From the NCBI GenBank assembly GCA_036918135.1, contig JBALDB010000018.1, positions 1 to 64,000 of the forward strand: a DNA stretch of 64,000 bases. Direction: 5' to 3'. Each line of letters opens with the position of its first letter. Positions within the stretch are counted from its first letter, which is position 1. Below are positions 35,994 through 56,697 of this stretch, piece after piece. A program made the position numbers and the translations under genes. Under the pieces are notes generated by a model that was not told the DNA's origin, ran no database searches, and saw only the letters and a list, made by a program, of their open reading frames with translations. The DNA comes from Nostoc sp. GTDB taxonomy: Bacteria; Cyanobacteriota; Cyanobacteriia; Cyanobacteriales; Nostocaceae.

Positions 35994-36274
35994 CCAAAAG
36001 ATGATTACAGCTTAAATTCAATATTCCAAATTAACTAATGCTGTAATGATTTTGCTTATACGAGGGAGTGATACTCCTTCGCTTTTTATATGAGCAACGT
36101 GAAACCCAACATGGATAAGGATGTTGGGTTTTCTAATTGTGGAGTGGGTGTCTCAGTTGTCTGGAACAAAAGACGGGTAAGATACCTACCCCACAAGATT
36201 AGATAATTTATTTGTTGGAAGTCCTTAATACTTACTCTCATAACCTACGCTAATCCGTATTTGTTCAAAAAATT

Positions 36275-36323
36275 TGTAGTATCTCCTTGACAATATGTAT
36301 TTTATATATTACAAATGTAGTAT
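36275..36323 (+). promoter_or_regulatory. promoter with two TGTAGTAT operator boxes
   Basis: TGTAGTAT at 36275-36282 and 36316-36323 flanking TTGACA (36287-36292) and TACAAA 17 bp downstream. Confidence 0.65.
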
Positions 36324-36365
36324 GAGAACAAAAGCTTTTCTAAAAGGCTAAGGCAAAACATCTCA

Positions 36366-36385
36366 GAACCTAGAAAACCGAATAG
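36366..36385 (+). promoter_or_regulatory. rrn-type boxA antitermination-like element
   Basis: GAACCTAGAAAACCGAATAG resembles the cyanobacterial rRNA ITS boxA (GAACCTTGAAAA) and following motif; small hairpin upstream. Confidence 0.6.
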
Positions 36386-36401
36386 CAAGTTACGACTTTT
36401 T

Positions 36402-36482
36402 GGGGTCGCGATTGGTGTTCGACTGCTCCGAAACCAACAAACGGACGGTAGCAGGATTCGGGTTCAATTCCCGACGACTCCA
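36402..36482 (+). ncRNA. mini-tmRNA (tRNA-like domain only, no tag reading frame)
   Basis: GGGGTCG/CGACTCC-A acceptor with G3.U70; tmRNA-type D region TGGTGTTCGAC; T arm TCGGG-TTCAATT-CCCGA; short helix 2. Confidence 0.8.
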
Positions 36483-36499
36483 CTGACTTCTACTTGTTT

Positions 36500-36706
36500 G
36501 GGTCTGTAACTCTAATGGTAGAGCGCCCAGATTCACTTGTGCTCTGACAGAAAAAGCTTACATACTTGCTCAAAGGTAGAGCGATCGTCTCTAAAACGAT
36601 AAGTGCAGGTTCAATTCCTGCGGTGTAACCACAGCTTTTTCAACTCGCACGAAGTGTGAGTGCAACTCTCACAGGGAAGGTATCGGTTCAATTCCGATCA
36701 GATCCA
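36500..36706 (+). ncRNA. handle RNA 1: Ala-identity tRNA shell whose anticodon arm holds a handle carrying a second tRNA-like body (CUA anticodon)
   Basis: Outer GGGTCTG/CAGATCC-A with D and T arms; handle 36539-36650; inner cloverleaf 36558-36631. Confidence 0.8.
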
Positions 36707-36732
36707 CTAAATAATTTGTAATTCGTAATTAA

Positions 36733-36948
<216 letters not shown>

Positions 36949-36961
36949 AATATTTAGTTAA

Positions 36962-37141
36962 CCATGCCCTAACAGAAGAAGCATACATACACATTCATAA
37001 CGATCCTAAGGTAGTAAAATTCGAGCGATCAAACTAGCGAAGTATGATTTATAAATTTTTTGCAGATTTAGCATACGTGCCCACTGCCAATAGTTGGTAA
37101 GAGCGATCGTAAGCTGTAAAAAGCTTCTTAAACTTGTACGG
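36962..37141 (+). ncRNA. handle RNA 2: circularly permuted 23S rRNA domain IV (H67-H71) mimic
   Basis: Handle motifs at both ends; ATAACGATCCTAAGGTAGTAAAATTC (36997-37022) resembles 23S 1916-1941; 37078-37112 resembles truncated H68 plus the H69 5' strand. Confidence 0.75.
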
Positions 37142-37156
37142 ATTAATTGAAGAATT

Positions 37157-37300
37157 AATTCCGCGCCCTGACTTGTAAAGCATACAAACATATATCCGGT
37201 AACGGAATACAGGTTCGATTCCTGTCGCTCCCTTTGATGGGAGCGTAGCCAAATTGGTAAAGGCAACTGTGAAAACTGCTTTGCTAACTTGTGCGGAATT
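37157..37300 (+). ncRNA. handle RNA 3: YrlA-like RNA with a circularly permuted class II tRNA domain
   Basis: Order: variable arm, T arm, acceptor stem CGCTCCC-tttgat-GGGAGCG closed by a loop, D arm; enclosed by the handle. Confidence 0.85.
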
Positions 37301-37361
37301 TCAATTATTTAAAATAGTAGTGTTTAGAGCAAGCCTTAGTGATTTTTCAAAACTAAAACTT

Positions 37362-37491
<130 letters not shown>

Positions 37492-37649
37492 TATAAATAT
37501 TAGATTTGGCAAAATTTTGATTGAGTGGAGGAAACTTATGCTCAAAGCTTTTAAAGACAGATTTTAAATAAAAAATCTTAATTTTAAAGCTATTAACTGG
37601 AATTAAAAACAATACTATTTATTGCAATTTAATATGATTTGAGGCTGCT

Positions 37650-38030
37650 ATGTCTGTGAACACTCTAGAAATTTTAGAGCAAATCAAGTCTCTAAATGTC
37701 AATGAAACCGCTCAATTAGTAAAGCAGATTGAAGCAACTTTCAATGTCGATATATCCACACCTAAATTCCTTAAGATTGACAAGCGAGATGAGGATGAAA
37801 CTCAACCGCAGATTCAAACGGAATTTGATGTCTTGTTGGTATCGGTTCCAACAGAGAAAAAGATTGCCTTACTCAAGGTCATCCGGACGGTGACTGGACT
37901 GGGACTCAAAGAAGCAAAAGACTTTGTAGAATCCCTGCCTCAAGTAGTTCAAGCAGGACTGAATCAAGAAGCGGCTGAAATTCTTAAGCAGCAGCTAGAG
38001 GAAACAGGAGCAGTTGTTTCTCTGATGTAA
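37650..38030 (+). CDS. rplL: ribosomal protein L7/L12 paralogue
   Basis: QTEFDVLL, KKIALLKVIRTVTGLGLKEAKDFVES; not next to rplJ; atypical charged hinge. Confidence 0.9.
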   Translation: MSVNTLEILEQIKSLNVNETAQLVKQIEATFNVDISTPKFLKIDKRDEDETQPQIQTEFDVLLVSVPTEKKIALLKVIRTVTGLGLKEAKDFVESLPQVVQAGLNQEAAEILKQQLEETGAVVSLM

Positions 38031-38095
38031 CAGAATTAGTCAAACAGGGAGTGTTGACTGCTGAGTTACGAATTCTCACTATCTTCCCAATCCTT

Positions 38096-38207
38096 GGCAG
38101 TTGTTGCTGCGCCCCGATAGCAGAAGCTTACATAACTCTGCATAAGTTATACACGATGCTTCTACAACTTGCGTGGTGACTGTATCGCCCCGCGTGCAAC
38201 ATCTGCC
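38096..38207 (+). ncRNA. handle RNA 5: minimal version with a lone anticodon-like stem-loop
   Basis: Handle 38107-38176; cargo ATAACT-CTGCATA-AGTTAT; outer helix GGCAG.TGTTGC/GCAACA.CTGCC. Confidence 0.75.
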
Positions 38208-38223
38208 TCCTCATCCATCATAA

Positions 38224-39672
<1,449 letters not shown>

Positions 39673-39807
39673 AGTACATCAGGGTGCGTTATGGTTACTC
39701 ATCACGCATCCCGATCTTATTCCATCATATATCCTCACTTTTATTGATTTACAAAGTTATAGTAAATTCTGTAAATTTAACTTATTATTAACTAATTCAA
39801 TTTGTTA

Positions 39808-40914
39808 CTAAACACCAAATAGGTACTTAGCAATGCTTTTATTTTTCATCAGAATGAATACAGCTAACCAACTCATGATAAAAGTGGGTAGAGAAAATGC
39901 TAATTGAGAAATAAAAGTTACTTCATCTAATAACTGAGGTTGAGTTTTCTTCAGATAAATCTCCATAAAATTAATTCCAAATAGGTGTATCAAGTAAATT
40001 CCAAAAGAACATAATGCTAAATTTCTTATGACGCTGTTTGGTTTTAAGTAATTCGATAAAACAATACCGTATAATAAAAGAGAATATCCCAGAAAAACTT
40101 CCCGAAAACCAGTAAGTATTGGGTTACTATAAACGTCAGCAATAAGAAATAAACCTAATAACAAGTAAGCATATACGAGTTTCACACGCAACAATGAAAA
40201 GTTGGTTTTAAGAAGTAAATACCTTAAAGTCATTGCAATAAAAAAGTAAGGTAAACACCTCAATAACCATGCTACTTCTATAGATATAAACCTCAAAAAC
40301 TCATTTTTAGAAGGCTCGTAATTCACTAGATTAAATAAATTATTAAAAGCTATATCGTTATGTAAATCTACTGTATTTCCAGTAATTAAAAGCAGGTTGT
40401 AGAGGATGAGGCTCAACAGAGACAAACTAGCTAATATTTTAAGTCCAATTTTCGGTTTTGCGAAGTAATTTGCAAATATTATGAGCGAAGTACCTACTAG
40501 CAATAGCGGTAAATAGTATAATTGATATGATGCTTTTCCATAAAATATAATTAAAAAAGGATCTCCTAATAGATGATTTAATTCTTCTTTTTGATTTGAT
40601 GCTGAAAACATAATTATTTTGGCAATCAGATAAATAACTGTCCAAACTATATATGGTATTAGGAGACGCCGACATCTTGCTTTCCAATAAGTTAATGAAA
40701 AGTCAGCATTCGACTTACAAATCATGAAGTAGAAAGATGCAGCTAAGAAAAAGGGAACAGCAAAACTAAATAGATATTGTATCTCTTGGGAAAAGTAACT
40801 TGCACGATCCCGATTTGGATCGGCTGAATGTAGTAAGACAACTGCGTATGCCGCGATTCCTCGGCACAAATCAACACCCGATAGCCTTGGTTTTGCCTCT
40901 ATTTTTGACTGCAT
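39808..40914 (-). CDS. acyltransferase family 3 membrane protein
   Basis: DLCRGIAAYAVVLLH, FAVPFF, RRLLIPY, SFGIYLIH; AT-rich. Confidence 0.9.
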   Translation of the reverse strand: MQSKIEAKPRLSGVDLCRGIAAYAVVLLHSADPNRDRASYFSQEIQYLFSFAVPFFLAASFYFMICKSNADFSLTYWKARCRRLLIPYIVWTVIYLIAKIIMFSASNQKEELNHLLGDPFLIIFYGKASYQLYYLPLLLVGTSLIIFANYFAKPKIGLKILASLSLLSLILYNLLLITGNTVDLHNDIAFNNLFNLVNYEPSKNEFLRFISIEVAWLLRCLPYFFIAMTLRYLLLKTNFSLLRVKLVYAYLLLGLFLIADVYSNPILTGFREVFLGYSLLLYGIVLSNYLKPNSVIRNLALCSFGIYLIHLFGINFMEIYLKKTQPQLLDEVTFISQLAFSLPTFIMSWLAVFILMKNKSIAKYLFGV

Positions 40915-40976
40915 TGTTAGTATTAAAGTAGATTTTTTGAAAAAATAAAGTATTCAAGTGGTTTTTTGTTTATAGA

Positions 40977-41119
40977 TAGGACTTATGCACTTTACACATT
41001 GACTATCATGTGGATGGTAGGCTCGTTAAGCTAAAAGTCTTGCCCTGCCTCGTTCCCAGATTCTGCCTTGTAACGATAGGTAAGCCACAGTTGTTATCTC
41101 TGTGAATGCATAAGTCCTA
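40977..41119. repeat. MITE-like element with 13-bp inverted ends
   Basis: TAGGACTTATGCA ... TGCATAAGTCCTA. Confidence 0.6.
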
Positions 41120-41240
41120 ATAAAGTTAACCAATTAATATTAGAAATACCATACCATATAAAACCCGATTTGATTTATGAAAACATCATGAGACTAAAAA
41201 GCCCGTTTTATCTAAAATCTTATTCAAAAATTAAATATGA

Positions 41241-41549
<309 letters not shown>

Positions 41550-41707
41550 TGAAATCATTCTGCGTATGCAGATAAAGGTTTTGATGCTCTGAGTAATTTA
41601 GCTTTTTTGTCTTTGTTGAAATAAGGCTGTAAATTAAAGGGTTTAAGATCCGCTTTGTAGGCATAACTAGCAGCCAAAATATTTACCGGAAAGTAACAAG
41701 TGTTAAT

Positions 41708-41725
41708 TGTAGTATAATGTAGTAT
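41708..41725 (+). promoter_or_regulatory. tandem TGTAGTAT boxes overlapping a TATAAT -10 element
   Basis: TGTAGTATaaTGTAGTAT; TATAAT at 41713-41718, just upstream of handle RNA 6. Confidence 0.7.
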
Positions 41726-41735
41726 TAGAATCTCA

Positions 41736-41938
41736 TGCGTGCCCCAACTCGTGGAGCCTACATATTAGTACGAGAGGAAGGTAACACTGCCGAATGCAGT
41801 GGGCGTTAGTGAACGGGGAGTGCGAAGAACCTGGAAAGTGGGCTTAGAAGTAGCCATCTTTGAAAGAGTGTGTAACAACTCACCAGCGGAGTCCCTCTAG
41901 TAACTGAGAAAACGCAATGCTCCACCAACTTGCACGCA
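41736..41938 (+). ncRNA. handle RNA 6: sarcin-ricin loop plus GTPase-associated centre (H42-H44) mimic
   Basis: AGTACGAGAGGA at 41767-41778; 41830-41887 colinear with 23S 1051-1108; handle TGCGTGC/GCACGCA. Confidence 0.85.
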
Positions 41939-41976
41939 GAATTATACAGTAATCTTAAATTATTCGTTAGAACCAA

Positions 41977-42010
41977 GATACCCGACTTCTTTTGAAAAGT
42001 TGGGTATCTA
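41977..42010. terminator. hairpin between RNA 6 and the convergent gene
   Basis: AGATACCCGACTT...AAGTTGGGTATCT inverted repeat. Confidence 0.6.
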
Positions 42011-42030
42011 AACCCTACTGAGCGATAAAA

Positions 42031-42423
42031 TTAAAGTTTACTTTCAGTCTTTGACTTTAATACCTGTATCGCTTTGAATCCTTCTATAGTCTGACCTAAA
42101 AATATCATGGGAATAATCAAGCCAAACGGTTTACCTGTTTGAATCGTATTGTAAATGCCAGTTAACGCATTTAGCGACATCAATCCTACTGCAATACCTA
42201 GTGCAATTTTTGATTTACGTTGTACAAAAAAACCTAGAACTAGATAGAGTAAACCAAAACCTAAAAACCCAATTCCTAATATTAGATAATCAGGCAATCG
42301 ATTACCAACGATAAAGAATATTATGCTTAGGAAAATACTCAAAATTCCAATTGCGTAAACTGCACGATAAGCAGATGCTAACTTTTTTCTGGACTCTGAC
42401 ATCTGTTGTATTTCGGTAGTCAT
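42031..42423 (-). CDS. small integral membrane protein
   Basis: Four hydrophobic segments. Confidence 0.75.
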   Translation of the reverse strand: MTTEIQQMSESRKKLASAYRAVYAIGILSIFLSIIFFIVGNRLPDYLILGIGFLGFGLLYLVLGFFVQRKSKIALGIAVGLMSLNALTGIYNTIQTGKPFGLIIPMIFLGQTIEGFKAIQVLKSKTESKL

Positions 42424-42551
42424 GCTTTTTCTATTTTTTGGGTTTATTGAGAGTAAATAATGTAGAAGCTATAGAACTTAAAAGATATATTTTTTATATA
42501 CTTAAATTTATAAATTTGCTTATGTAATTTTGCTTAAAAAAACGATAATTT

Positions 42552-43382
42552 ATGACTGACATCCGTAAGCTAATCAACCAAATTGCTAGCGCAGAAGCAC
42601 AGTTGTGTAATACTCAATTTCTTGCGCCTTGTGTAAAAGGTGGACGAGTTCGCACACGAGTAGTAGGGATGGTCTATACCTTCACACCAAAGCCGAATAA
42701 ATTTGAAGGTTGGGGTATTTTTCAGCCGGTGGATGAGAAGATAGCAATGGTTGTGGAAGAGGCAGATTTACCTCAAATTGCCGAATACCTGCAACACTTT
42801 CCCCAAATACGGCTGCGGCTAGCATACCAACTGCGGGGACAAAGTTGGTTAGCATACCCCGTGAATGAAGCAGATATACGTCAACGGTTGCAGGTGGTTA
42901 AACCGATCGCCATTCATCTAGTAACTGAAAGTATTATTTTTGACCAAATCATCGCCCGTTGGAATGGACAGTCCTGCTGGTTTGAGGAAATCGATCATCG
43001 TACCGATCCGGCTATTGTTGAAACTCTGCAATCAGCTGTTAAGCAACTGATTCCCGTTGAAGAATTGCAATTTAAAGGCATAACGCCAGAAATTCGCACA
43101 GTCTATGAATTAGCAACACGGCAAATTGAAGGCTTTGGGCAACCCCAACAGGATGAAAAGCGATTGAGAAAGGCATTGCAGATGGGTGGCGGTGAATTAA
43201 AGCAGTTTCACGATCGCGGTGATTACTGGACAGTGGACTGGACAACTGCTGATGGTGTTCGCCACAGTAGTGCGATCGCCAAAACTGACTTGACTGTAAT
43301 CAGTTCTGGTATTTGCCTAAGTGGATACGATCGCAACTTTGACTTGCAATCGTTAGTTGGTGTAATGGAACAACAAGAGTAG
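42552..43382 (+). CDS. hypothetical protein with C-terminal SGICLSG motif, directly upstream of ThiF
   Basis: 276-aa ORF, 24 bp upstream of the ThiF gene; family not recognised. Confidence 0.85.
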   Translation: MTDIRKLINQIASAEAQLCNTQFLAPCVKGGRVRTRVVGMVYTFTPKPNKFEGWGIFQPVDEKIAMVVEEADLPQIAEYLQHFPQIRLRLAYQLRGQSWLAYPVNEADIRQRLQVVKPIAIHLVTESIIFDQIIARWNGQSCWFEEIDHRTDPAIVETLQSAVKQLIPVEELQFKGITPEIRTVYELATRQIEGFGQPQQDEKRLRKALQMGGGELKQFHDRGDYWTVDWTTADGVRHSSAIAKTDLTVISSGICLSGYDRNFDLQSLVGVMEQQE

Positions 43383-43406
43383 TAAGTGTATTAATTACGA
43401 ATTATT

Positions 43407-44045
43407 ATGAGTATCTTTTTTCACGAACAGCTTTACCGCAGCAATGCTGTGATGGCAAAGTTGAAAAACTATCCTGTAACAATTTGTGGGGCGGGGGCGT
43501 TAGGGGCTAATATTGCTGAGAATATGGCTCGGTCTGGTTTTGATAAACTGACAGTAATCGATTGCGATCGCATTGAGGAGCGTAATCTTTCCACCCAGCC
43601 TTACTACCGTTCCGATGTTGGAGCATTCAAAGCAAAAATATTGGCAAACAATTTATACCGAGCAATTGGTACTAAAGTTGATGCTAAAACCAAAGAATTG
43701 ACATCAGCAAATGTCAATCAACTACTCCAAGATAGTCAATTAATTATTGATGCTTTTGACAATAGCGTAGCACGTCAATTAGTAAAAGATTATGCCACTC
43801 AATTTAGCATTCCTTGTCTTCATGCTGGGCTAGCAGTTGATTATGCAGAGGTAATTTGGAATGATGTTTATCGCGTTCCTTCTGAGGTTAATGATGATGT
43901 TTGTGATTATCCTTTGGCACGAAACTTAGTAATATTAACCGTTGCTGTAGTATCGGAAGCGATTGTTTCATTTATTGCCACAACAGAACGGCGTAACTTC
44001 ACCATCACTTTGAAGGATTTGACTGTTCAACCTTTGTTTTTGTAG
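43407..44045 (+). CDS. ThiF/MoeB/E1-like adenylyltransferase
   Basis: GAGALG, D.DRIEERNLSTQ, KA, IIDAFDN..AR; lacks CxxC zinc pairs. Confidence 0.92.
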   Translation: MSIFFHEQLYRSNAVMAKLKNYPVTICGAGALGANIAENMARSGFDKLTVIDCDRIEERNLSTQPYYRSDVGAFKAKILANNLYRAIGTKVDAKTKELTSANVNQLLQDSQLIIDAFDNSVARQLVKDYATQFSIPCLHAGLAVDYAEVIWNDVYRVPSEVNDDVCDYPLARNLVILTVAVVSEAIVSFIATTERRNFTITLKDLTVQPLFL

Positions 44046-44127
44046 ATGGCGATCGCAGAATTTGTAATAAGCTGGAAAAGCTAAACCATTAACAGCGAAA
44101 ATGAGCAAATTATGAGCCTTAAAACCA

Positions 44128-44358
44128 GTGCCTAAGAAAATTAGAGAACTGAAGGCAATGGTAGCAAAAGTTGGATATATTCTTCAGCCAGGTCGAGGAA
44201 AAGGAAGTCATACGTATTGGAAACATCCGTTATTACCTGAAGAACCTCTGACTATTCCAGGTAAGGAGGGAGATGATGCTCCGCTATATTTGGAGAAGAA
44301 CATTCAACGGGTTCTCAAAAGGTTGGAAGAGTTTGAAAGCGATGAAGGTGAATCATAA
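44128..44358 (+). CDS. hicA: HicA toxin (mRNA interferase)
   Basis: GKGSH motif, 76 aa. Confidence 0.9.
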   Translation: MPKKIRELKAMVAKVGYILQPGRGKGSHTYWKHPLLPEEPLTIPGKEGDDAPLYLEKNIQRVLKRLEEFESDEGES

Positions 44359-44589
44359 ATGAGTTATTACTACAGCATGGTGATTCAGTGGTCAGAGGAC
44401 GATCGACTATTCTTAGTGCATTTGCCAGAGTTCCCCTGGCAGGAGTTTCATACGCATGGCAAAACTTACGAAGAAGCTGCCAAAAATGGGCAGGAAGTAA
44501 TTGAGGCGTTTGTTGAGATGCTGCAAGAAGAGGGAAAACCACTACCAGAACCCAGAATGCTTCCTAGACGACCATTACAGGTTGCTTAG
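44359..44589 (+). CDS. hicB: HicB antitoxin
   Basis: WSEDD...LPEF...THGKTYEEA...GKPLPEP. Confidence 0.9.
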   Translation: MSYYYSMVIQWSEDDRLFLVHLPEFPWQEFHTHGKTYEEAAKNGQEVIEAFVEMLQEEGKPLPEPRMLPRRPLQVA

Positions 44590-44604
44590 TCAATCTGATT
44601 AATG

Positions 44605-45339
44605 CTAAAGCATTTTTTCTAAAAACTGCTTAGCGCGATCGCATTTAGGATTCTGGAAAAACTCACTCGGAGCTGTATCTTCTGCTAAAATTCCTTGGTC
44701 GAGGAACATAATTCGATTGGCAACTTCTCTGGCAAAACCCATTTCATGGGTAACAATCGCCATTGTCATACCAGATAAGGCTAAAGCTTTCATCACTTCC
44801 AGCACATCTTTGACCATTTCTGGATCTAAAGCAGAGGTGGGTTCATCGAACAAAATCATCTGTGGTTCCATTGCTAACGCGCGGGCGATCGCTACTCGCT
44901 GTTTTTGTCCCCCCGATAGTTTGGACGGGTAGACATGGGCTTTTGGCTCTAAACCTACTTTTGCCAGCAATTCTAAACCATGTTGCTGGGCTTTTTGCTG
45001 AGCTATTTTCTTCACCTTGATGGGCGCGTAGGTGACATTTTGCAGCACCGTCATGTGGGGAAACAAATTAAAATGTTGAAATACCATCACCAAATGCTGG
45101 CGAACTTTAGCAATGTTTGCTTTCGGATTAGTGATTTCTTGTTCTTGAAAATAGACTCTTCCTCTGGTGGGTTGTTCTAGCAAATTCATGCATCGCAAAA
45201 AGGTAGACTTACCGGAACCTGAAGGGCCTAATATGGCAACCACTTCACCCCGATTAATCTCAGTGGAAATATCTTTGAGTACGTCGAGTTGACCAAAGGA
45301 TTTACACAAAAATTCCGTGCGAATTATTGCATTACTCAC
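44605..45339 (-). CDS. polar amino acid ABC transporter ATPase
   Basis: [28 protein letters not shown]. Confidence 0.95.
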
Positions 45340-46822
45340 TTTGCCGTAATCTCCTTTCTAAAGTAGATGCACCGAAGGTCAAACCCATGACCAAAACATA
45401 ATAAATTAATCCTGCAAACAGTAAGGGTTCAAAATAAATATATTTATTTGCACCAACGATTTGGGCACTGCGTAATATTTCTACCACACCAATTGTTGAC
45501 ACCAGGGCGGAATCTTTCAACAGTCCAATAGTTTCATTTACTAATGCTGGTAGAATGTTCTTCAATGCTTGGGGCAAAATCACATCCCACATCATCAACC
45601 AATAGGGAACACCCATAGACATCGCCGCTTCACTTTGCCCTTTATCTACTGCTTGAATCCCACCCCTGATGGTTTCCGACATATAAGCGCCAGAATTCAA
45701 GGTAAAAGTTAACACCCCTGCCTCCAATGCCGAAATCTTATAGCCTGTAAGCTGGGGTGTTGCGTAGTAAACCAACGCCAATTGTAACAGCAAGGGTGTG
45801 CCTCGAAAGATAGAAGTGTAAGCATTAGCAACCCACGTCAGCGGCTTAATCCCGATAATTTTAGATAGAGAGAGTATTGTTCCCCAGATTAAACCCAATG
45901 TTACGGATAATAGCGTAAACAACAAAGTTAAAGGGATGCCCCGCAGAATAAAGGGAATATCTGGAAATATTCTCCTGATGTCAAAATTTAATCCTTTTTT
46001 GGCAGGAGTTGAGGATGTAGTATCGGTGATAATATTCTCAGAAAACCACTTATTTACTAATTGATTTAATCTGCCATTCTCCTTCATTTGTTGCAAGACT
46101 TTGTTAAAAGGTTCGACAAAAGCAGAATTTTTGGGAAAAGCGATCGCCGATCCACTTGCTTCTTCTGAAGGGATAATATTAAATTCTAAATCTGGATTGG
46201 CTTGGGCAAATCCTTTAGCAACGGTATCCTCAACAATTGCCGCATCAATTCGCCCAGATTTAATTTCTTGAACTACTTCGGGAACTTTATTAAGTTGCTT
46301 TATTTGAATGCCTGTAACTTTTTGAGCAATTTTTTTCGCATTTTGCTCCTGTATAGTTCCTAGTTGTACCCCAACTTTTTTTCCCGATAAATCTTGTGGC
46401 TGCTTGAGATTGCTACCCTTAACAGCAACAATCGTATCTTTGGCTTCATAATAAATAATTGAAAAATCAACATTTTTCTGACGTTCTGGAGTTGGAGTCA
46501 TCCCCGCCATTACAAAGTCTGCTCGATTTGCTTGGAGTGCAGGAATTAAGCCATTAAAATCCGATTCCATAATTTGAAGTTTAAACCCTAGTTTTTGAGC
46601 AAGGGTTTTGGCAATATCTATATCAAAGCCAACAATTTGACTTTCACCTGTTTTAGTATCGTAAAATTCATAAGGCGGATAATCTGGTGAAGTAATCATC
46701 GTTAGCGTGTCTTTCCCTAAAGATGAAGCAGCTTTGAGAGACTCGCTATATCCTGTGATAATATTGATTGCTACTATTAGTGCAAAGAATATCGTTAATA
46801 GCCATACTCTTGTTTTTTTCAC
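45332..46822 (-). CDS. polar amino acid ABC transporter, fused binding protein and permease
   Basis: SBP family 3 (YPPYE, GFDID) plus permease (RGTPLL, EAA loop). Confidence 0.93.
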
Positions 46823-47015
46823 GGGCTTGAGAATTATTTAATGGATTTGACAATTATATAAATCCACTCTCATTTTGCCAGGATTCTAACAATTACGATT
46901 TCTGTACGACCTTAACGAAAAAATATCATAGAGACGTTGCATTGCAACGTCTCTACATCTGTTGGAATAGCTTAAGATAGCTGTATCTTCCCGTCTACAC
47001 ACATAGCCGAGTGAA

Positions 47016-47540
47016 CTACTCGCTTTCATTCATCCGTTGTACGCTCCAAAAATGTTCTGCAAATGCAACGGCGGGGTGAATTGGAGCTTTAGGCTTGGTT
47101 TTGAGTACCATAGATGCTTCATGAGGTAAGCGATCGCTCTTAGTTGAGTTACACTTCTCGCAGGCAGTTACAACGTTATCCCAACTATGCTGTCCACCTT
47201 TGGAACGAGGAATCACATGGTCAAGGGTTAAACGCTTACCGCTACCACAGTATTGACAAGTATGATTATCGCGCTTGAGTACTTCACGACGATTTACAGG
47301 AGGTACTTTCCAGTGTCGTTCTGGATTACCCGTTGTCAAACGAATGTGTTCCGGAACTTGTAGTACAATACTGGGCGAGCGGACTTCCCACTGCTTTGTA
47401 CTGCCAAAATTCAATGATTCTGCTTGACCAGTAACTAACAGTACTATTGCTCGTTTGATGTTGATACGTGCCAATGGTAAGTAGTTCTTGGAGAAGACTA
47501 CCACCGAATTTTGTAGTATGTGTGGCTGCTGAACTTGCAT
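47016..47540 (-). CDS. HNH endonuclease
   Basis: RDNHTCQYCG..LTLDHVIPRSKGG..WDNVVTACEKCNSTK; ATG at 47540 with GAGGAG RBS. Confidence 0.93.
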   Translation of the reverse strand: MQVQQPHILQNSVVVFSKNYLPLARINIKRAIVLLVTGQAESLNFGSTKQWEVRSPSIVLQVPEHIRLTTGNPERHWKVPPVNRREVLKRDNHTCQYCGSGKRLTLDHVIPRSKGGQHSWDNVVTACEKCNSTKSDRLPHEASMVLKTKPKAPIHPAVAFAEHFWSVQRMNESE

Positions 47541-47556
47541 GGATAAAGAGCTCCTC

Positions 47557-47596
47557 AAAAAAATAACCCCCACTTCTGGTTATCAGCAGCGGGGGT
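47557..47596 (-). terminator. terminator/attenuator immediately upstream of the HNH RBS
   Basis: ACCCCCGCT...AGTGGGGGT-TATTTTTTT on the minus strand. Confidence 0.75.
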
Positions 47597-47835
47597 CAGG
47601 TAGTTGATACTTTTTGCCTGTTTATAGGTGCTATCAAACAGTTGCACCTCCCGCTGTGGATTATTCGATCCCAATTGACCACTAGAGCGATCGTGAAAAT
47701 ACTTTCACTTGCAGATTTAACCCCCAATAACCAATACGTCCTCTCAAACGCACGCGCACCAGGTGTTCTGCCTGTACCCTTGCTCGGTTGACAATGCATC
47801 ATGCTATTAATGGTTGAAGAGAATCTGGTTATCAT
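47596..47835 (-). CDS. putative leader ORF
   Basis: 79-aa ORF whose TGA abuts the terminator stem. Confidence 0.4.
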   Translation of the reverse strand: MITRFSSTINSMMHCQPSKGTGRTPGARAFERTYWLLGVKSASESIFTIALVVNWDRIIHSGRCNCLIAPINRQKVSTT

Positions 47836-47843
47836 CGAATTTC

Positions 47844-47860
47844 TGTAGTATTTGTAGTTT
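47844..47860. promoter_or_regulatory. TGTAGTAT/TGTAGTTT boxes upstream of the HNH unit
   Basis: Same motif as at 36275, 36316, 41708 and 41718. Confidence 0.6.
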
Positions 47861-48159
47861 AAATTTATTGTATAATACAACTTGTAATATTAATTTGTCT
47901 AGTGCCAATATTTCTAGAGGATGACGACAGATAATCTGCCGAATATCCAAAGCTTGAACAGCATATTCTCTAATTATGACACTTTCACAGCCATTAGTTG
48001 CCCCAAATGAATTTTCTGTAAAGATATCAGCTCGAGTTTATCCAATTAATGAGGACGGTATTAACTGTACCGATGAATGGGACTATTGGTATTAAATTTA
48101 GTAACCTAGAAAAGTAGATGTTTATATTTCCAGATAGAGCCACTCGACTATCAGTCTAA

Positions 48160-50274
<2,115 letters not shown>

Positions 50275-54969: not shown

Positions 54970-56697
54970 CTAATGACTAATGACTAATTGTGGTTTTCCC
55001 CAAAGGATGGTCTCTTGCTTATAAATGGCAATTCCTGGTTTTGCTCCTTTGGGTTTGTAGACGTGTTTTAGCTGAGTGTATACTACTGGCACTTGGTCAC
55101 TCTGACGGGCGCGACTGTAGTAAGCAGCAAGATTAGCTACAAATTGTAAATCAGCTTCTTCTGCAACAGCACCGGGTTCAAGACGTAGTAGCACATGGCT
55201 ACCTGGAATTTCTTGAGCGTGAAACCATAGGTCATAATCCCCAGCTACACGAAAAGTCAATTGGTCATTTTGGCGATTGTTACGACCGATCAAAACTTCA
55301 AAGCCACTAGGAGTAAGGTAATGATAAAAGTTACTTGTAGAGGCTTCATTGTTGGTGCGATCGCGGTATTCTGGATCTTCGAGATACTTTTGCCCAATCA
55401 GTTCTTCGCGGATTTCTTCTAAAGCTTGCAAATCTTGTGCTGTTTGGTAGTTGTCTATTTGGTCGATCGCAGCTTGTACTTGTTCCAAATAGTCTATTTC
55501 TGTCTGCGCTTCTAAAAGTAGCGGTTCTACAGCAGAACGAGCGCGTTTGAGTTTTTGGTGCTGTTTGTAAAGACTTTGGGCATTTTGGACGGCGTTTTTA
55601 TCTGGTTGGAGAGCGATCGCTATTGGCTGATTAGTCTCAAAATCTGGGATAATTATTTCTTTCATCCCTGGTTCCCAGTTTTGCAGGTGAGCCATTAATA
55701 AATCTGCTTTTTGCCGATACTCATCAGCTCGATCTGATTGCTGCAAGCGTGTCTTAAAAGTTTGAGCTTTATTGTGTAATTTCCCCAAAATATTATTTAA
55801 TTTCTGACTCAACTGATGGCGCAATTGAGAAAATAACTGTTGATTGAGTTGGTCAGTGTAGTAACGGTTGAGTAATTCTTGAATGTCTTTAACGCTTTCC
55901 ACTCCACCCCAACCCATTACTGTATAGCCGTCTTTTGTCCAAGCGGGTTGAAATTTCCCAGAATCCAAGGTTTGCAGCCATTCTTGCCAATGCTCAAACA
56001 ATCTTTGCCAATCCTCTGGTTTGAGTGTATCGGTGGATGTTTCTGGTAGAATATTTGCTGCTAAGAGCATTGATTCTAACAATGCTGCACTCAAACCACT
56101 ATAACTTTTGAGTAATTGCCGCTTGATTGCTCCTGGTACTAAGCTTACGCGTTCTTGCCAGCGTTGTTGAGATTCGCTCAAATTGGGGATAGTCCCAATA
56201 AGTTTTGGTGGTGTTTCGTAAGGTTGTCCGGTTTGGATAGGACGGACACTAGATTGTTGCTGACTGACTTGATGGGCAGCAGTAATAATTATATTGCTAG
56301 CGTCAGTGAGAATGACGTTGCTATACTTGCCCATAATTTCTGCATAGACATGATATAGGGCGTTTTCTCCGGGACGCCGAGCAAATTGTAAATCAATAAC
56401 CCGTTCCCAAGGAGCGATCGCTTCAATTGCTACTAAAGCCAAACCAGCCAATTGGTGTATCAGTTGTTGGCTAAAAGTGAAGGTATCGGGAATTCGCGGT
56501 GGCGGATCGGTGATGCAAATATGTGCAGCTTGAGGATGCCAAGAAATCTCTAGCCAACCCCGTTGTTTCAAGGTGCGTAATGCTATGGCAATAGTGTAGC
56601 GATCGCGCTGATAAACTTGCTCTAAGCGTGATGGTAGCCAGCTTGCACGAATTTCGCTACAAGCAGCTGTGAGAGTGGTAAAGTCAACTGGTTGCAA
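54970..56697 (-). CDS. rqcH: RqcH/FbpA (NFACT) ribosome quality-control protein
   Basis: EIMGKYSNVIL, NAQ..YK...K, GRNNRQND, WFHAQEIPGSHV. Confidence 0.92.
   Translation of the reverse strand: MQPVDFTTLTAACSEIRASWLPSRLEQVYQRDRYTIAIALRTLKQRGWLEISWHPQAAHICITDPPPRIPDTFTFSQQLIHQLAGLALVAIEAIAPWERVIDLQFARRPGENALYHVYAEIMGKYSNVILTDASNIIITAAHQVSQQQSSVRPIQTGQPYETPPKLIGTIPNLSESQQRWQERVSLVPGAIKRQLLKSYSGLSAALLESMLLAANILPETSTDTLKPEDWQRLFEHWQEWLQTLDSGKFQPAWTKDGYTVMGWGGVESVKDIQELLNRYYTDQLNQQLFSQLRHQLSQKLNNILGKLHNKAQTFKTRLQQSDRADEYRQKADLLMAHLQNWEPGMKEIIIPDFETNQPIAIALQPDKNAVQNAQSLYKQHQKLKRARSAVEPLLLEAQTEIDYLEQVQAAIDQIDNYQTAQDLQALEEIREELIGQKYLEDPEYRDRTNNEASTSNFYHYLTPSGFEVLIGRNNRQNDQLTFRVAGDYDLWFHAQEIPGSHVLLRLEPGAVAEEADLQFVANLAAYYSRARQSDQVPVVYTQLKHVYKPKGAKPGIAIYKQETILWGKPQLVISH

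Follow-up and report, generated by a model that had tools for sequence, protein, structure and literature searches.

An 81-nt element of Nostoc sp. was confirmed, by comparison of its copies across genomes, as a real RNA gene under selection. Judged by its sequence anatomy it is a TLD-only tmRNA and not a standard one, the mRNA domain being exchanged for a short stem. The RNA type is known; the cellular and regulatory setting of the host copy is new. Until now, tag-less tmRNAs have been regarded as rarities and the phage member as an inhibitor aimed at the host; it is unexpected to find a copy that the host keeps, that is controlled by a stress operator and that has a homologue in a model operon. 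The element, referred to below as the mini-tmRNA, lies at 36402-36482 (+) of the window, the 64,000-nt stretch of DNA analysed here, and is built as follows.

36402-36408/36475-36481, +: acceptor stem, 7 bp, with G3.U70 formed by G36404 and U36479
36409-36422, +: D-loop region, with its TTCGAC end at 36418-36423
36423-36430/36446-36454, +: P2-like stem, 8 bp, one bulge
36431-36433, +: A bulge
36434-36444, +: mini hairpin, 2 bp, with a conserved 7-nt loop
36455-36457, +: connector, reading GGAT
36458-36474, +: T arm, 5-bp stem and TTCAATT loop
36482, +: discriminator A

The hallmarks that the first-pass annotation had listed (a GGGG start, G3.U70, TTCGAC, and GGAT before the T arm) are all present, and the TLD has the features of a standard tmRNA: a 7-bp acceptor, G3.U70, A73, a T arm and a D loop without anticodon arm. 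The gene does not encode CCA; CTG comes next. Resume codon, tag ORF and pseudoknots are absent, the interval from TTCGAC to GGAT being only 30 nt long and base-paired. A short helix had been proposed for this interval and is found there, but it is not a plain one, consisting of a stem, an A-rich bulge and a 2-bp hairpin. Similarly, the D-loop region does end in TTCGAC as described, but it is less clearly stemless than had been thought, since RNAfold can pair three of its bases. The predicted fold is that of a TLD (-31.6 kcal/mol, z -2.41), with 3 of 200 shuffles equally stable. In an E-value search of positions 36000-48500 (12.5 kb) with cmscan, the standard tmRNA model RF00023 matched the element at 43.2 bits (E 1.4e-14); the alignment spans model positions 1-374, with 22 nt in place of 314 model positions. 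This score is below the gathering score of the model (47 bits), which explains why neither the whole-window Rfam gathering scan nor ARAGORN called the element.

Conservation was examined among cyanobacteria. In the best 30 loci from 151 related genomes, the element is present at exactly 81 nt in 24 and carries a T-loop insertion in three, while three others keep the operon without the RNA. Within the genus, 54 of 101 genomes contain the core pattern and 47 show no match, the reversed control giving 0; a covariance model made from 19 copies found the mini-tmRNA in 23 of 151 family-drawn genomes, representing 13 of 68 genera. Identity to the window copy over 23 loci is 95% for the element and 69% for its leader; in the next gene it is 92% at codon positions 1 and 2 and 79% at third positions. 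The comparison of homologous loci that had been suggested thus came out in favour of conservation, the element (95%) exceeding third codon positions of the next gene (79%). The 38 distinct insertion-free cyanobacterial versions are all 81 nt long and form a gap-free alignment of 81 columns, in which 98.2% of the cells are paired and G3.U70 and A73 are kept in 38 of 38. Nine of the 21 pairs show changes on both sides (three in the acceptor, four in P2 and two in the T stem). The covariation score was 0.216, whereas shuffles gave 0.077 and slid pairs no more than 0.071; the aligned sequences are related, and the shuffle counts are therefore not probabilities.

Some variation was seen as well. 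At least nine copies carry a palindromic T-loop insertion (7 of 57 by script, plus L024 and L187), the loci with the repeat being L009, L023, L024, L043, L049, L186, L187, L192 and L193. A small palindromic repeat occupies the same T-loop place in the mini-tmRNA and in many tRNAs of trn arrays. A few copies are degenerate (L185 and L195, for example), and the A of TTCGAC is altered in some. The connector also departs from the usual form: full-length tmRNA 3' ends have GGAC in 46 of 46 cases among the matches listed in a genome scan, as opposed to GGAT in the mini-tmRNA.

The host genome contains one smpB gene and an intact ssrA of 388 nt (C56:134802-135189; tag ANNIVKFARREALVAA). A blastn search of this genome with the mini-tmRNA returned only the element itself and no match to ssrA. 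The best 81-nt deletion product that can be made from the host ssrA agrees with the mini-tmRNA at 46 of 81 positions, as against 57 of 81 for the TLD-only tmRNA of phage DS6A, and the last 29 nt match ssrA at 16 of 29. A recent deletion copy of the host ssrA is ruled out by these three results; the idea of a non-conserved deletion derivative, raised in the first-pass annotation, fails equally in view of the 46/81 agreement with ssrA and the 95% conservation over 23 loci. That annotation had also read the element as a TLD with both ends present and fused, unlike the 3'-only fragments left by integrases. This reading holds: both ends align to RF00023, and no integrase was found among the neighbours scanned. 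With two ends kept, no near-identity to ssrA and no neighbouring integrase, an integrase-type remnant of ssrA is ruled out. The same applies to a permuted two-piece tmRNA (RF04321), for which the match reached only 16.5 bits (E 7) and the order is 5' then 3', and to a tRNA-Ala, there being neither an ARAGORN or RF00005 call at the element nor an anticodon arm. YrlA Y RNAs combine a T-acceptor-D order with the Ro-binding motif GNCGAAN0-1G (PMC4201824). This motif is absent from the 81 nt, so that a YrlA identity (RF02553) is ruled out also; a weak match to that model lies elsewhere (37208-37264). A prophage location is disfavoured by the flat GC and by flanking ORFs that look like housekeeping genes; we take them to be such from names recognised in their translations, 12 ORFs having been scanned against Pfam.

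Relatives were found in phages. A phage collection contained no close match to the window element. A generic pattern scan of IMG/VR gave at least 120 viral loci, with 90 distinct elements among the matches listed. Seven of seven acceptor pairs, G3.U70, A73 and five of five T-stem pairs were present in 120 of the 120 viral loci listed, taking the best of four 5' registers; the pattern itself held G3 and three T-stem pairs, but not the 3' acceptor strand, U70 or A73. Alanine identity is thus kept in all 38 cyanobacterial versions and in all 120 viral loci among the matches listed. Among the 90 distinct viral elements listed, 72 are 77-81 nt long, 12 have the GGAT connector, and most consist of a stem, an A-rich bulge and a small hairpin. 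No smpB or Ro gene was found in the flanks of the 120 viral loci listed (flank length 1.5 kb at 80 loci and 0.3 kb at the other 40). A partner gene common to the phages was sought and rejected, as a PHROGs scan of ORFs around 63 of the viral loci (128 out of 302) gave ordinary structural, lysis and replication genes. Cultured Streptomyces phages carry unannotated look-alikes by blastn. A match in Gordonia phage Sixama (MN484601.1, L198:1114-1533) was ruled out as a mini-tmRNA; it is apparently a full-length tmRNA gene, unannotated, beside a Ro-like gene.

A looser scan of GTDB gave at least 119 loci, comprising 46 normal tmRNA 3' ends, 43 cyanobacterial mini forms, 19 other mini forms and 11 unclear cases; because many matches are normal tmRNA 3' ends, the phyla in this list are not the range of the family. 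Ten non-cyanobacterial genomes with a mini form were tested for full-length tmRNA, and eight have one as well; the mini form is therefore an accessory gene. A genome with a mini form 0.6 kb from smpB and no full-length match (G299) was considered as a case of a sole tmRNA, an interpretation that is unsupported: the genome is incomplete (0.5 Mb), and a long tmRNA is present in 23 of 25 relatives. Accessory mini forms of 62-85 nt in chromosome-looking surroundings were seen in MAGs of Saccharibacteria (L214, L253, L266, L275, L234) and Poribacteria (L268, L270, L272). Four of the Saccharibacteria copies are near a TrmB-like regulator gene, and one mini form is 0.6 kb from smpB. At two loci (L213, L249) a Tpt1/KptA RNA 2'-phosphotransferase gene adjoins the mini-tmRNA, which fits an RNA-repair neighbourhood.

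The closest known RNA is the TLD-only tmRNA of DS6A (JN698994.1, 28478-28557; PMC4131195, PMC11915505), which has 80 nt to the 81 of Nostoc, fused ends and G3.U70. Like it, the Nostoc RNA has 5' and 3' tRNA-like segments in the standard order, a short closed P2 stem and no CDS. Both RNAs combine a stem, an A-rich bulge and a CC..GG mini hairpin, are identical at the 57 of 81 positions mentioned above, and the DS6A acceptor stem is that of most Nostoc copies. Unlike the DS6A gene, however, the Nostoc gene is chromosomal, lies among housekeeping genes and is conserved across a bacterial genus; its hairpin loop is a conserved 7-mer and its connector is GGAT; and the Nostoc type has a host stress operator and is linked to Ro60 and Y-like RNA genes or to trn arrays. 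The CDS-less tmRNAs of mitochondria and of Mallomonadaceae plastids likewise have no tag frame, and have been proposed to aid with incomplete mRNAs together with SmpB (PMC11915505). They are not described as second copies, whereas the Nostoc mini-tmRNA coexists with a 388-nt ssrA; moreover, the mitochondrial ones are mostly permuted, and the Nostoc one is not. The same survey counted 9 standard-form and 72 permuted tag-less tmRNAs among 97,179 sequences, the named CDS-less cases being plastids, DS6A, a mitochondrion and two possibly tag-less bacterial groups, Nasuia and 9FT-COMBO-53-11 (PMC11915505). A cyanobacterial copy may be among the nine standard-form sequences. No report of a cyanobacterial or host-regulated tag-less tmRNA was found in the full-text literature searched, which was mostly open-access. 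With standard tmRNA (RF00023) the mini-tmRNA has in common the acceptor, the D-loop motif, P2a and the T arm, but not the pseudoknots, the resume codon or the tag.

The region ahead of the mini-tmRNA contains the following candidate regulatory features.

36061-36081, upstream of the mini-tmRNA: terminator-like hairpin of the previous gene
36275-36282, +: further TrcR half-site
36287-36315, +: probable promoter, recognised by eye (-35 TTGACA at 36287-36292, 17 nt, -10-like TACAAA at 36310-36315)
36306-36323, +: TrcR-type operator, inverted pair ATATTACA-AA-TGTAGTAT across the -10 box
36366-36384, +: leader motif common to the leader of the genome's own trn array (C18:36366 and C2:44006 among 20 loose matches)

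The leader motif is presumably boxA-like. A mechanical promoter scan did not list the proposed promoter at 36287, because the -10 box is without its last T. The putative operator is one of 11 sites in the genome within two mismatches of the perfect dyad; two of the others precede genes that we take, from their translations, to be trcR and rtcB. The published TrcR site is ATACTACACTTGTATTAC, which fits the inverted pair at 36306-36323, and the -10 box of trcR itself is TACACT (PMC10272220). As in the TrcR regulon, the predicted operator motif overlaps the -10 box; no direct-repeat pair of TGTAGTAT at 3-4 nt spacing was found at the mini-tmRNA promoter. Of 30 cyanobacterial loci, 24 have a box in the 700 nt upstream, as scored with a loose motif and no control. 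TrcR binding and derepression under ribosome stress have been reported for promoters elsewhere, one of them the trn promoter that lies ahead of the homologue in Anabaena PCC 7120 (PMC8421152, PMC10272220); the operator motif is common to the Nostoc locus and to the TrcR regulon and trn operon of that strain.

When 30 cyanobacterial loci were inspected with 3-kb flanks, 19 were found to adjoin genes of the Ro60 operon described below, seven were in tRNA arrays and four were in neither setting. Both settings, whether on chromosome or plasmid, have TrcR-type boxes. In the array subtype the central 17 nt are kept and the acceptor, P2 and T stems covary. The trn array of the window genome does not contain a mini-tmRNA. 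The homologue of PCC 7120 lies on plasmid delta (NC_003273.1, 51739-51819, minus strand) between the genes for tRNA-Glu(UUC) and tRNA-Tyr(GUA), and is unannotated as judged from the PLSDB table (which lists no RNA genes), ARAGORN and the published papers. The trn operon of this strain gives one transcript, cut to products of 70-100 nt, and is induced 100-1000-fold by ribosome antibiotics (PMC8421152); RelE/MazF/VapC RNases are induced alongside it under these drugs. The word tmRNA does not occur in the main text and supplementary file of PMC8421152 or in the main text of PMC10272220, and the Ro60 operon is not among the tabled strongly derepressed genes of the TrcR regulon.

Expression of the mini-tmRNA is weakly supported. 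In two of four RNA runs (X1 and X6, from two studies) a contig extends over a homologue and into the next RNA, a weak hint because ends and strand are not shown and the contigs may derive from DNA in the library; the X1 homologue carries a T-loop insertion. Among the pieces listed for runs X4 and X9 none covers the element, and none of 24 runs contains half of the window.

From its position, the mini-tmRNA heads what looks like a translation-stress operon, with the following members downstream.

36500-36706, +: second RNA, a tRNA-Ala-like shell with G3.U70 and a Y-RNA-like insert replacing the anticodon loop
36748-36948, +: 66-aa conserved protein ending YG, with no Pfam or NCBIfam family
37074-37294 (approximate ends), +: YrlA-like RNA, in the order T arm, closed acceptor, D arm
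37365-37487, +: Y-RNA-like terminal stem around a tRNA-like unit (37389-37462), with 71.5% similarity to the second RNA's insert
37650-38030, +: second L7/L12 gene (paralogue; PF00542 E 1.5e-23, TIGR00855 above cut-off)
38100-38177 (approximate ends), +: short Y-RNA-like stem, with terminal motifs as in the neighbouring Y-like RNAs
38239-39672, +: putative Ro60/Rsr-family protein, 477 aa (TROVE + vWA), missed by Pfam TROVE

The insert of the second RNA is about 145 nt long and harbours a nested tRNA-like unit (36558-36630) with a CUA (amber-reading) loop; the shell resembles a tRNA-Ala(UGC) from a trn array (L031). Nested CUA-loop units occur within trn arrays of relatives as well. The 66-aa protein may be ubiquitin-like. 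The YrlA-like RNA includes the RF02553 match at 37208-37264 (24.1 bits, E 0.19), which is far under the gathering score of 69, and the other L7/L12 copy of the genome is on contig C27. The 477-aa protein is, according to profile and structural model, a Ro60. Its single sequence and a 15-sequence profile gave weak Ro60 matches only, but a profile of 74 homologues matched human RO60 (E 8e-18) and Rsr (E 1.2e-7), and the predicted structure (pLDDT 88.9) placed Ro60/TROVE proteins at all of the top 11 Foldseek ranks (TM 0.60-0.70). The subfamily is large (1288 representatives at E<=0.001) and is unrecognised by Pfam TROVE and NCBIfam. In some cyanobacteria (L031, L035) the Ro60 operon follows directly after the trn array. 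As in the Rsr/YrlA loci (PMC4201824), a Ro60 orthologue and several tRNA-like RNAs are encoded within 4 kb on the same strand; unlike in those loci, the mini-tmRNA is no Y RNA, and its neighbours include nested tRNA units and a 23S rRNA fragment.

Regarding function, the first-pass annotation had proposed a sponge, a decoy, tag-free rescue or an alanine donor, and these are indeed the candidates to be weighed. The reading that we place first, at somewhat under an even chance, is that the RNA is alanylated, is bound by SmpB and goes into non-stop ribosomes, where it would add alanine but no tag. A polycistronic transcript with the mini-tmRNA in first place would arise from a TrcR-repressed promoter, as suggested by the operator; in print this has been shown only for the trn operon of PCC 7120, which contains a homologue. 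tRNA-processing enzymes would trim it and CCA would be added; the invariance of G3.U70 and A73 suggests charging with alanine, and the kept D-loop and connector motifs suggest binding by the single host SmpB and by EF-Tu. The RNA could then enter ribosomes stalled on stop-less mRNA, where the peptide would move to the alanine and translocation would follow. The trapped tRNA would thereby be freed and the broken mRNA ejected, as cited for an engineered TLD with SmpB in vitro; this combination makes polyalanine without template (Shimizu and Ueda 2006, cited in PMC3929946 and PMC2481249). The last step is the weakest: with no resume codon, more alanines might be added until a full-length tmRNA, drop-off or subunit splitting intervenes. 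Because it has no stop codon, a TLD cannot by itself release the ribosome, and it must therefore be assumed that full tmRNA takes over later or that drop-off or splitting occurs. On balance, the mini-tmRNA would be a message-free helper that shifts rescue from "tag and degrade" to short alanine tails and competes with ssrA for SmpB. An RqcH/NFACT-family gene (55351-56685, minus strand) is located 19 kb from the mini-tmRNA; such a gene might serve for back-up release, but could already supply alanine tails.

The main rival is an RNA that binds SmpB (perhaps EF-Tu) off the ribosome and damps trans-translation in stress or infection without productive transfer, a possibility that we regard as rather improbable. 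The sole published function of an RNA of this natural type, as cited, speaks for it and against the reading placed first: a DS6A-like molecule strongly inhibits E. coli tmRNA, whether chargeable or not, perhaps via SmpB titration (Mao et al. 2009, cited in PMC4131195 and PMC11915505). The absence of smpB from the flanks of the 120 viral loci listed, which means that the host protein must be used, and the presence of a full-length tmRNA beside the mini form, seen here and in eight of ten further genomes tested that have a mini form, point the same way. Yet a pure sponge does not explain why the alanine identity pair is invariant, because inhibition needed no charging, and a gene kept by the host under a host stress repressor is hard to read as anti-host. 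Switching rescue off also looks costly: Synechocystis without tmRNA is more sensitive to ribosome antibiotics (cited in PMC5222879), and the host genome has no ArfB-type protein, its only two PF00472 genes encoding 369 and 371 aa. Productive use was ranked first on these grounds, namely that alanine identity is invariant, that the host apparently induces the RNA when non-stop complexes should peak, that the genome is without ArfB and that loss of cyanobacterial tmRNA sensitises to the same drugs. Since the mini-tmRNA must compete for SmpB, inhibition and productive use are both possible for one RNA. Connector bases contact SmpB, and the GGAT connector may weaken that binding; this, the changes in TTCGAC, the patchy presence, the losses and the T-loop insertions all count against productive use.

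The patchiness (54 of 101), the loss from otherwise intact operons, the T-loop insertions, the degenerate copies L185 and L195 and the abundance of the family in phages would also suit an RNA that came with a phage-derived tRNA array and is now neutral or slowly decaying, kept by linkage alone. This is unlikely, given an identity of 95% for the element against 69% for the leader and 79% for third codon positions (23 loci), the 81 gap-free columns, the compensatory changes in acceptor, P2 and T stems, and the occurrence in two separate settings, chromosomal or plasmid, each with TrcR-type boxes. Still less probable is a translation look-alike that, along with the tRNA-like, Y-like and 23S-fragment RNAs, absorbs ribotoxins or is held by Ro60 without any role for SmpB. 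Several mimic RNAs and a Ro60 gene are indeed encoded in the operon, and toxin RNases are co-induced with the trn operon, but the element has no GNCGAA motif (PMC4201824), no terminal stem like that of its neighbours and no anticodon or message to cut; it keeps the tmRNA-specific TCGA motif, and of 30 cyanobacterial loci seven belong to trn arrays and four more have no Ro gene or array within 3 kb. An alanine donor acting off the ribosome, for example for the pair of the small YG-ending protein and ThiF or for another transferase of the operon, seems very improbable: it would account for an invariant alanine identity in an RNA that has no anticodon, G3.U70 recurs in the next RNA and a ThiF-like gene is near, but no aminoacyl transferase was found in the locus, no neighbour gene is common to the phage members, and the tmRNA-specific motifs would be needless.

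Should tag-free alanine addition be correct, a broader picture can be drawn, which is possible though on balance doubtful. Bacteria would have a stress-induced, message-free branch of trans-translation, in which SmpB carries a natural, alanine-charged TLD-only RNA that clears non-stop mRNA, frees tRNA from intact 70S ribosomes and leaves untemplated alanine tails. In Nostocales this branch would be part of a TrcR-controlled kit of translation look-alikes, together with a spare L7/L12 and with RNAs, tethered by Ro60, that contain tRNA units and a 23S rRNA fragment; it may contribute to the phenotype of the trn operon deletion in PCC 7120. That a free-living bacterium with an intact ssrA keeps the mini-tmRNA behind its own stress operator makes a purely anti-host role insufficient. 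The cellular role of a message-less tmRNA was posed as a question in PMC11915505, and the copy in the inducible trn operon of the genetically tractable PCC 7120 makes function directly testable. The published deletion of this operon probably also removed the mini-tmRNA, its end points being assumed to span it.

The 23S rRNA fragment belongs to a second unit farther downstream, separated from the first by an acyltransferase gene on the opposite strand. A partial duplicate of the Ro60 gene (41241-41552, +; about 55 codons from the middle of the gene) lies just before the second promoter.

41708 and 41718, +: two TGTAGTAT boxes, ahead of a Y-RNA-like RNA
about 41736-41940, +: Y-RNA-like RNA with 23S rRNA fragment, conserved in L035, L043 and L049
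42552-43382, +: uncharacterised 276-aa protein, often linked to the operon in relatives
43407-44045, +: ThiF/E1-like protein, often linked to the operon in relatives

The fragment (56 nt, 41831-41886) corresponds to positions 1093-1148 of the 23S rRNA model, at 51 bits and above gathering; we take this to be the L11-binding region. A spare L7/L12 gene is present in the operon, and the RNA may act as a tether or decoy, either for L11 and stalk proteins or for drugs of the thiostrepton type. The genome has the fragment once more, as a stand-alone intergenic copy (C56:190538-190587, minus strand; 84% over 50 nt), and a similar 23S motif was seen in a viral locus (L077), where a phage tRNA cluster includes a mini-tmRNA. 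The ThiF gene is followed by a HicA/HicB pair (44128-44589, +), and an HNH gene at 47016-47573 (minus strand) resembles one that precedes trn arrays in relatives.
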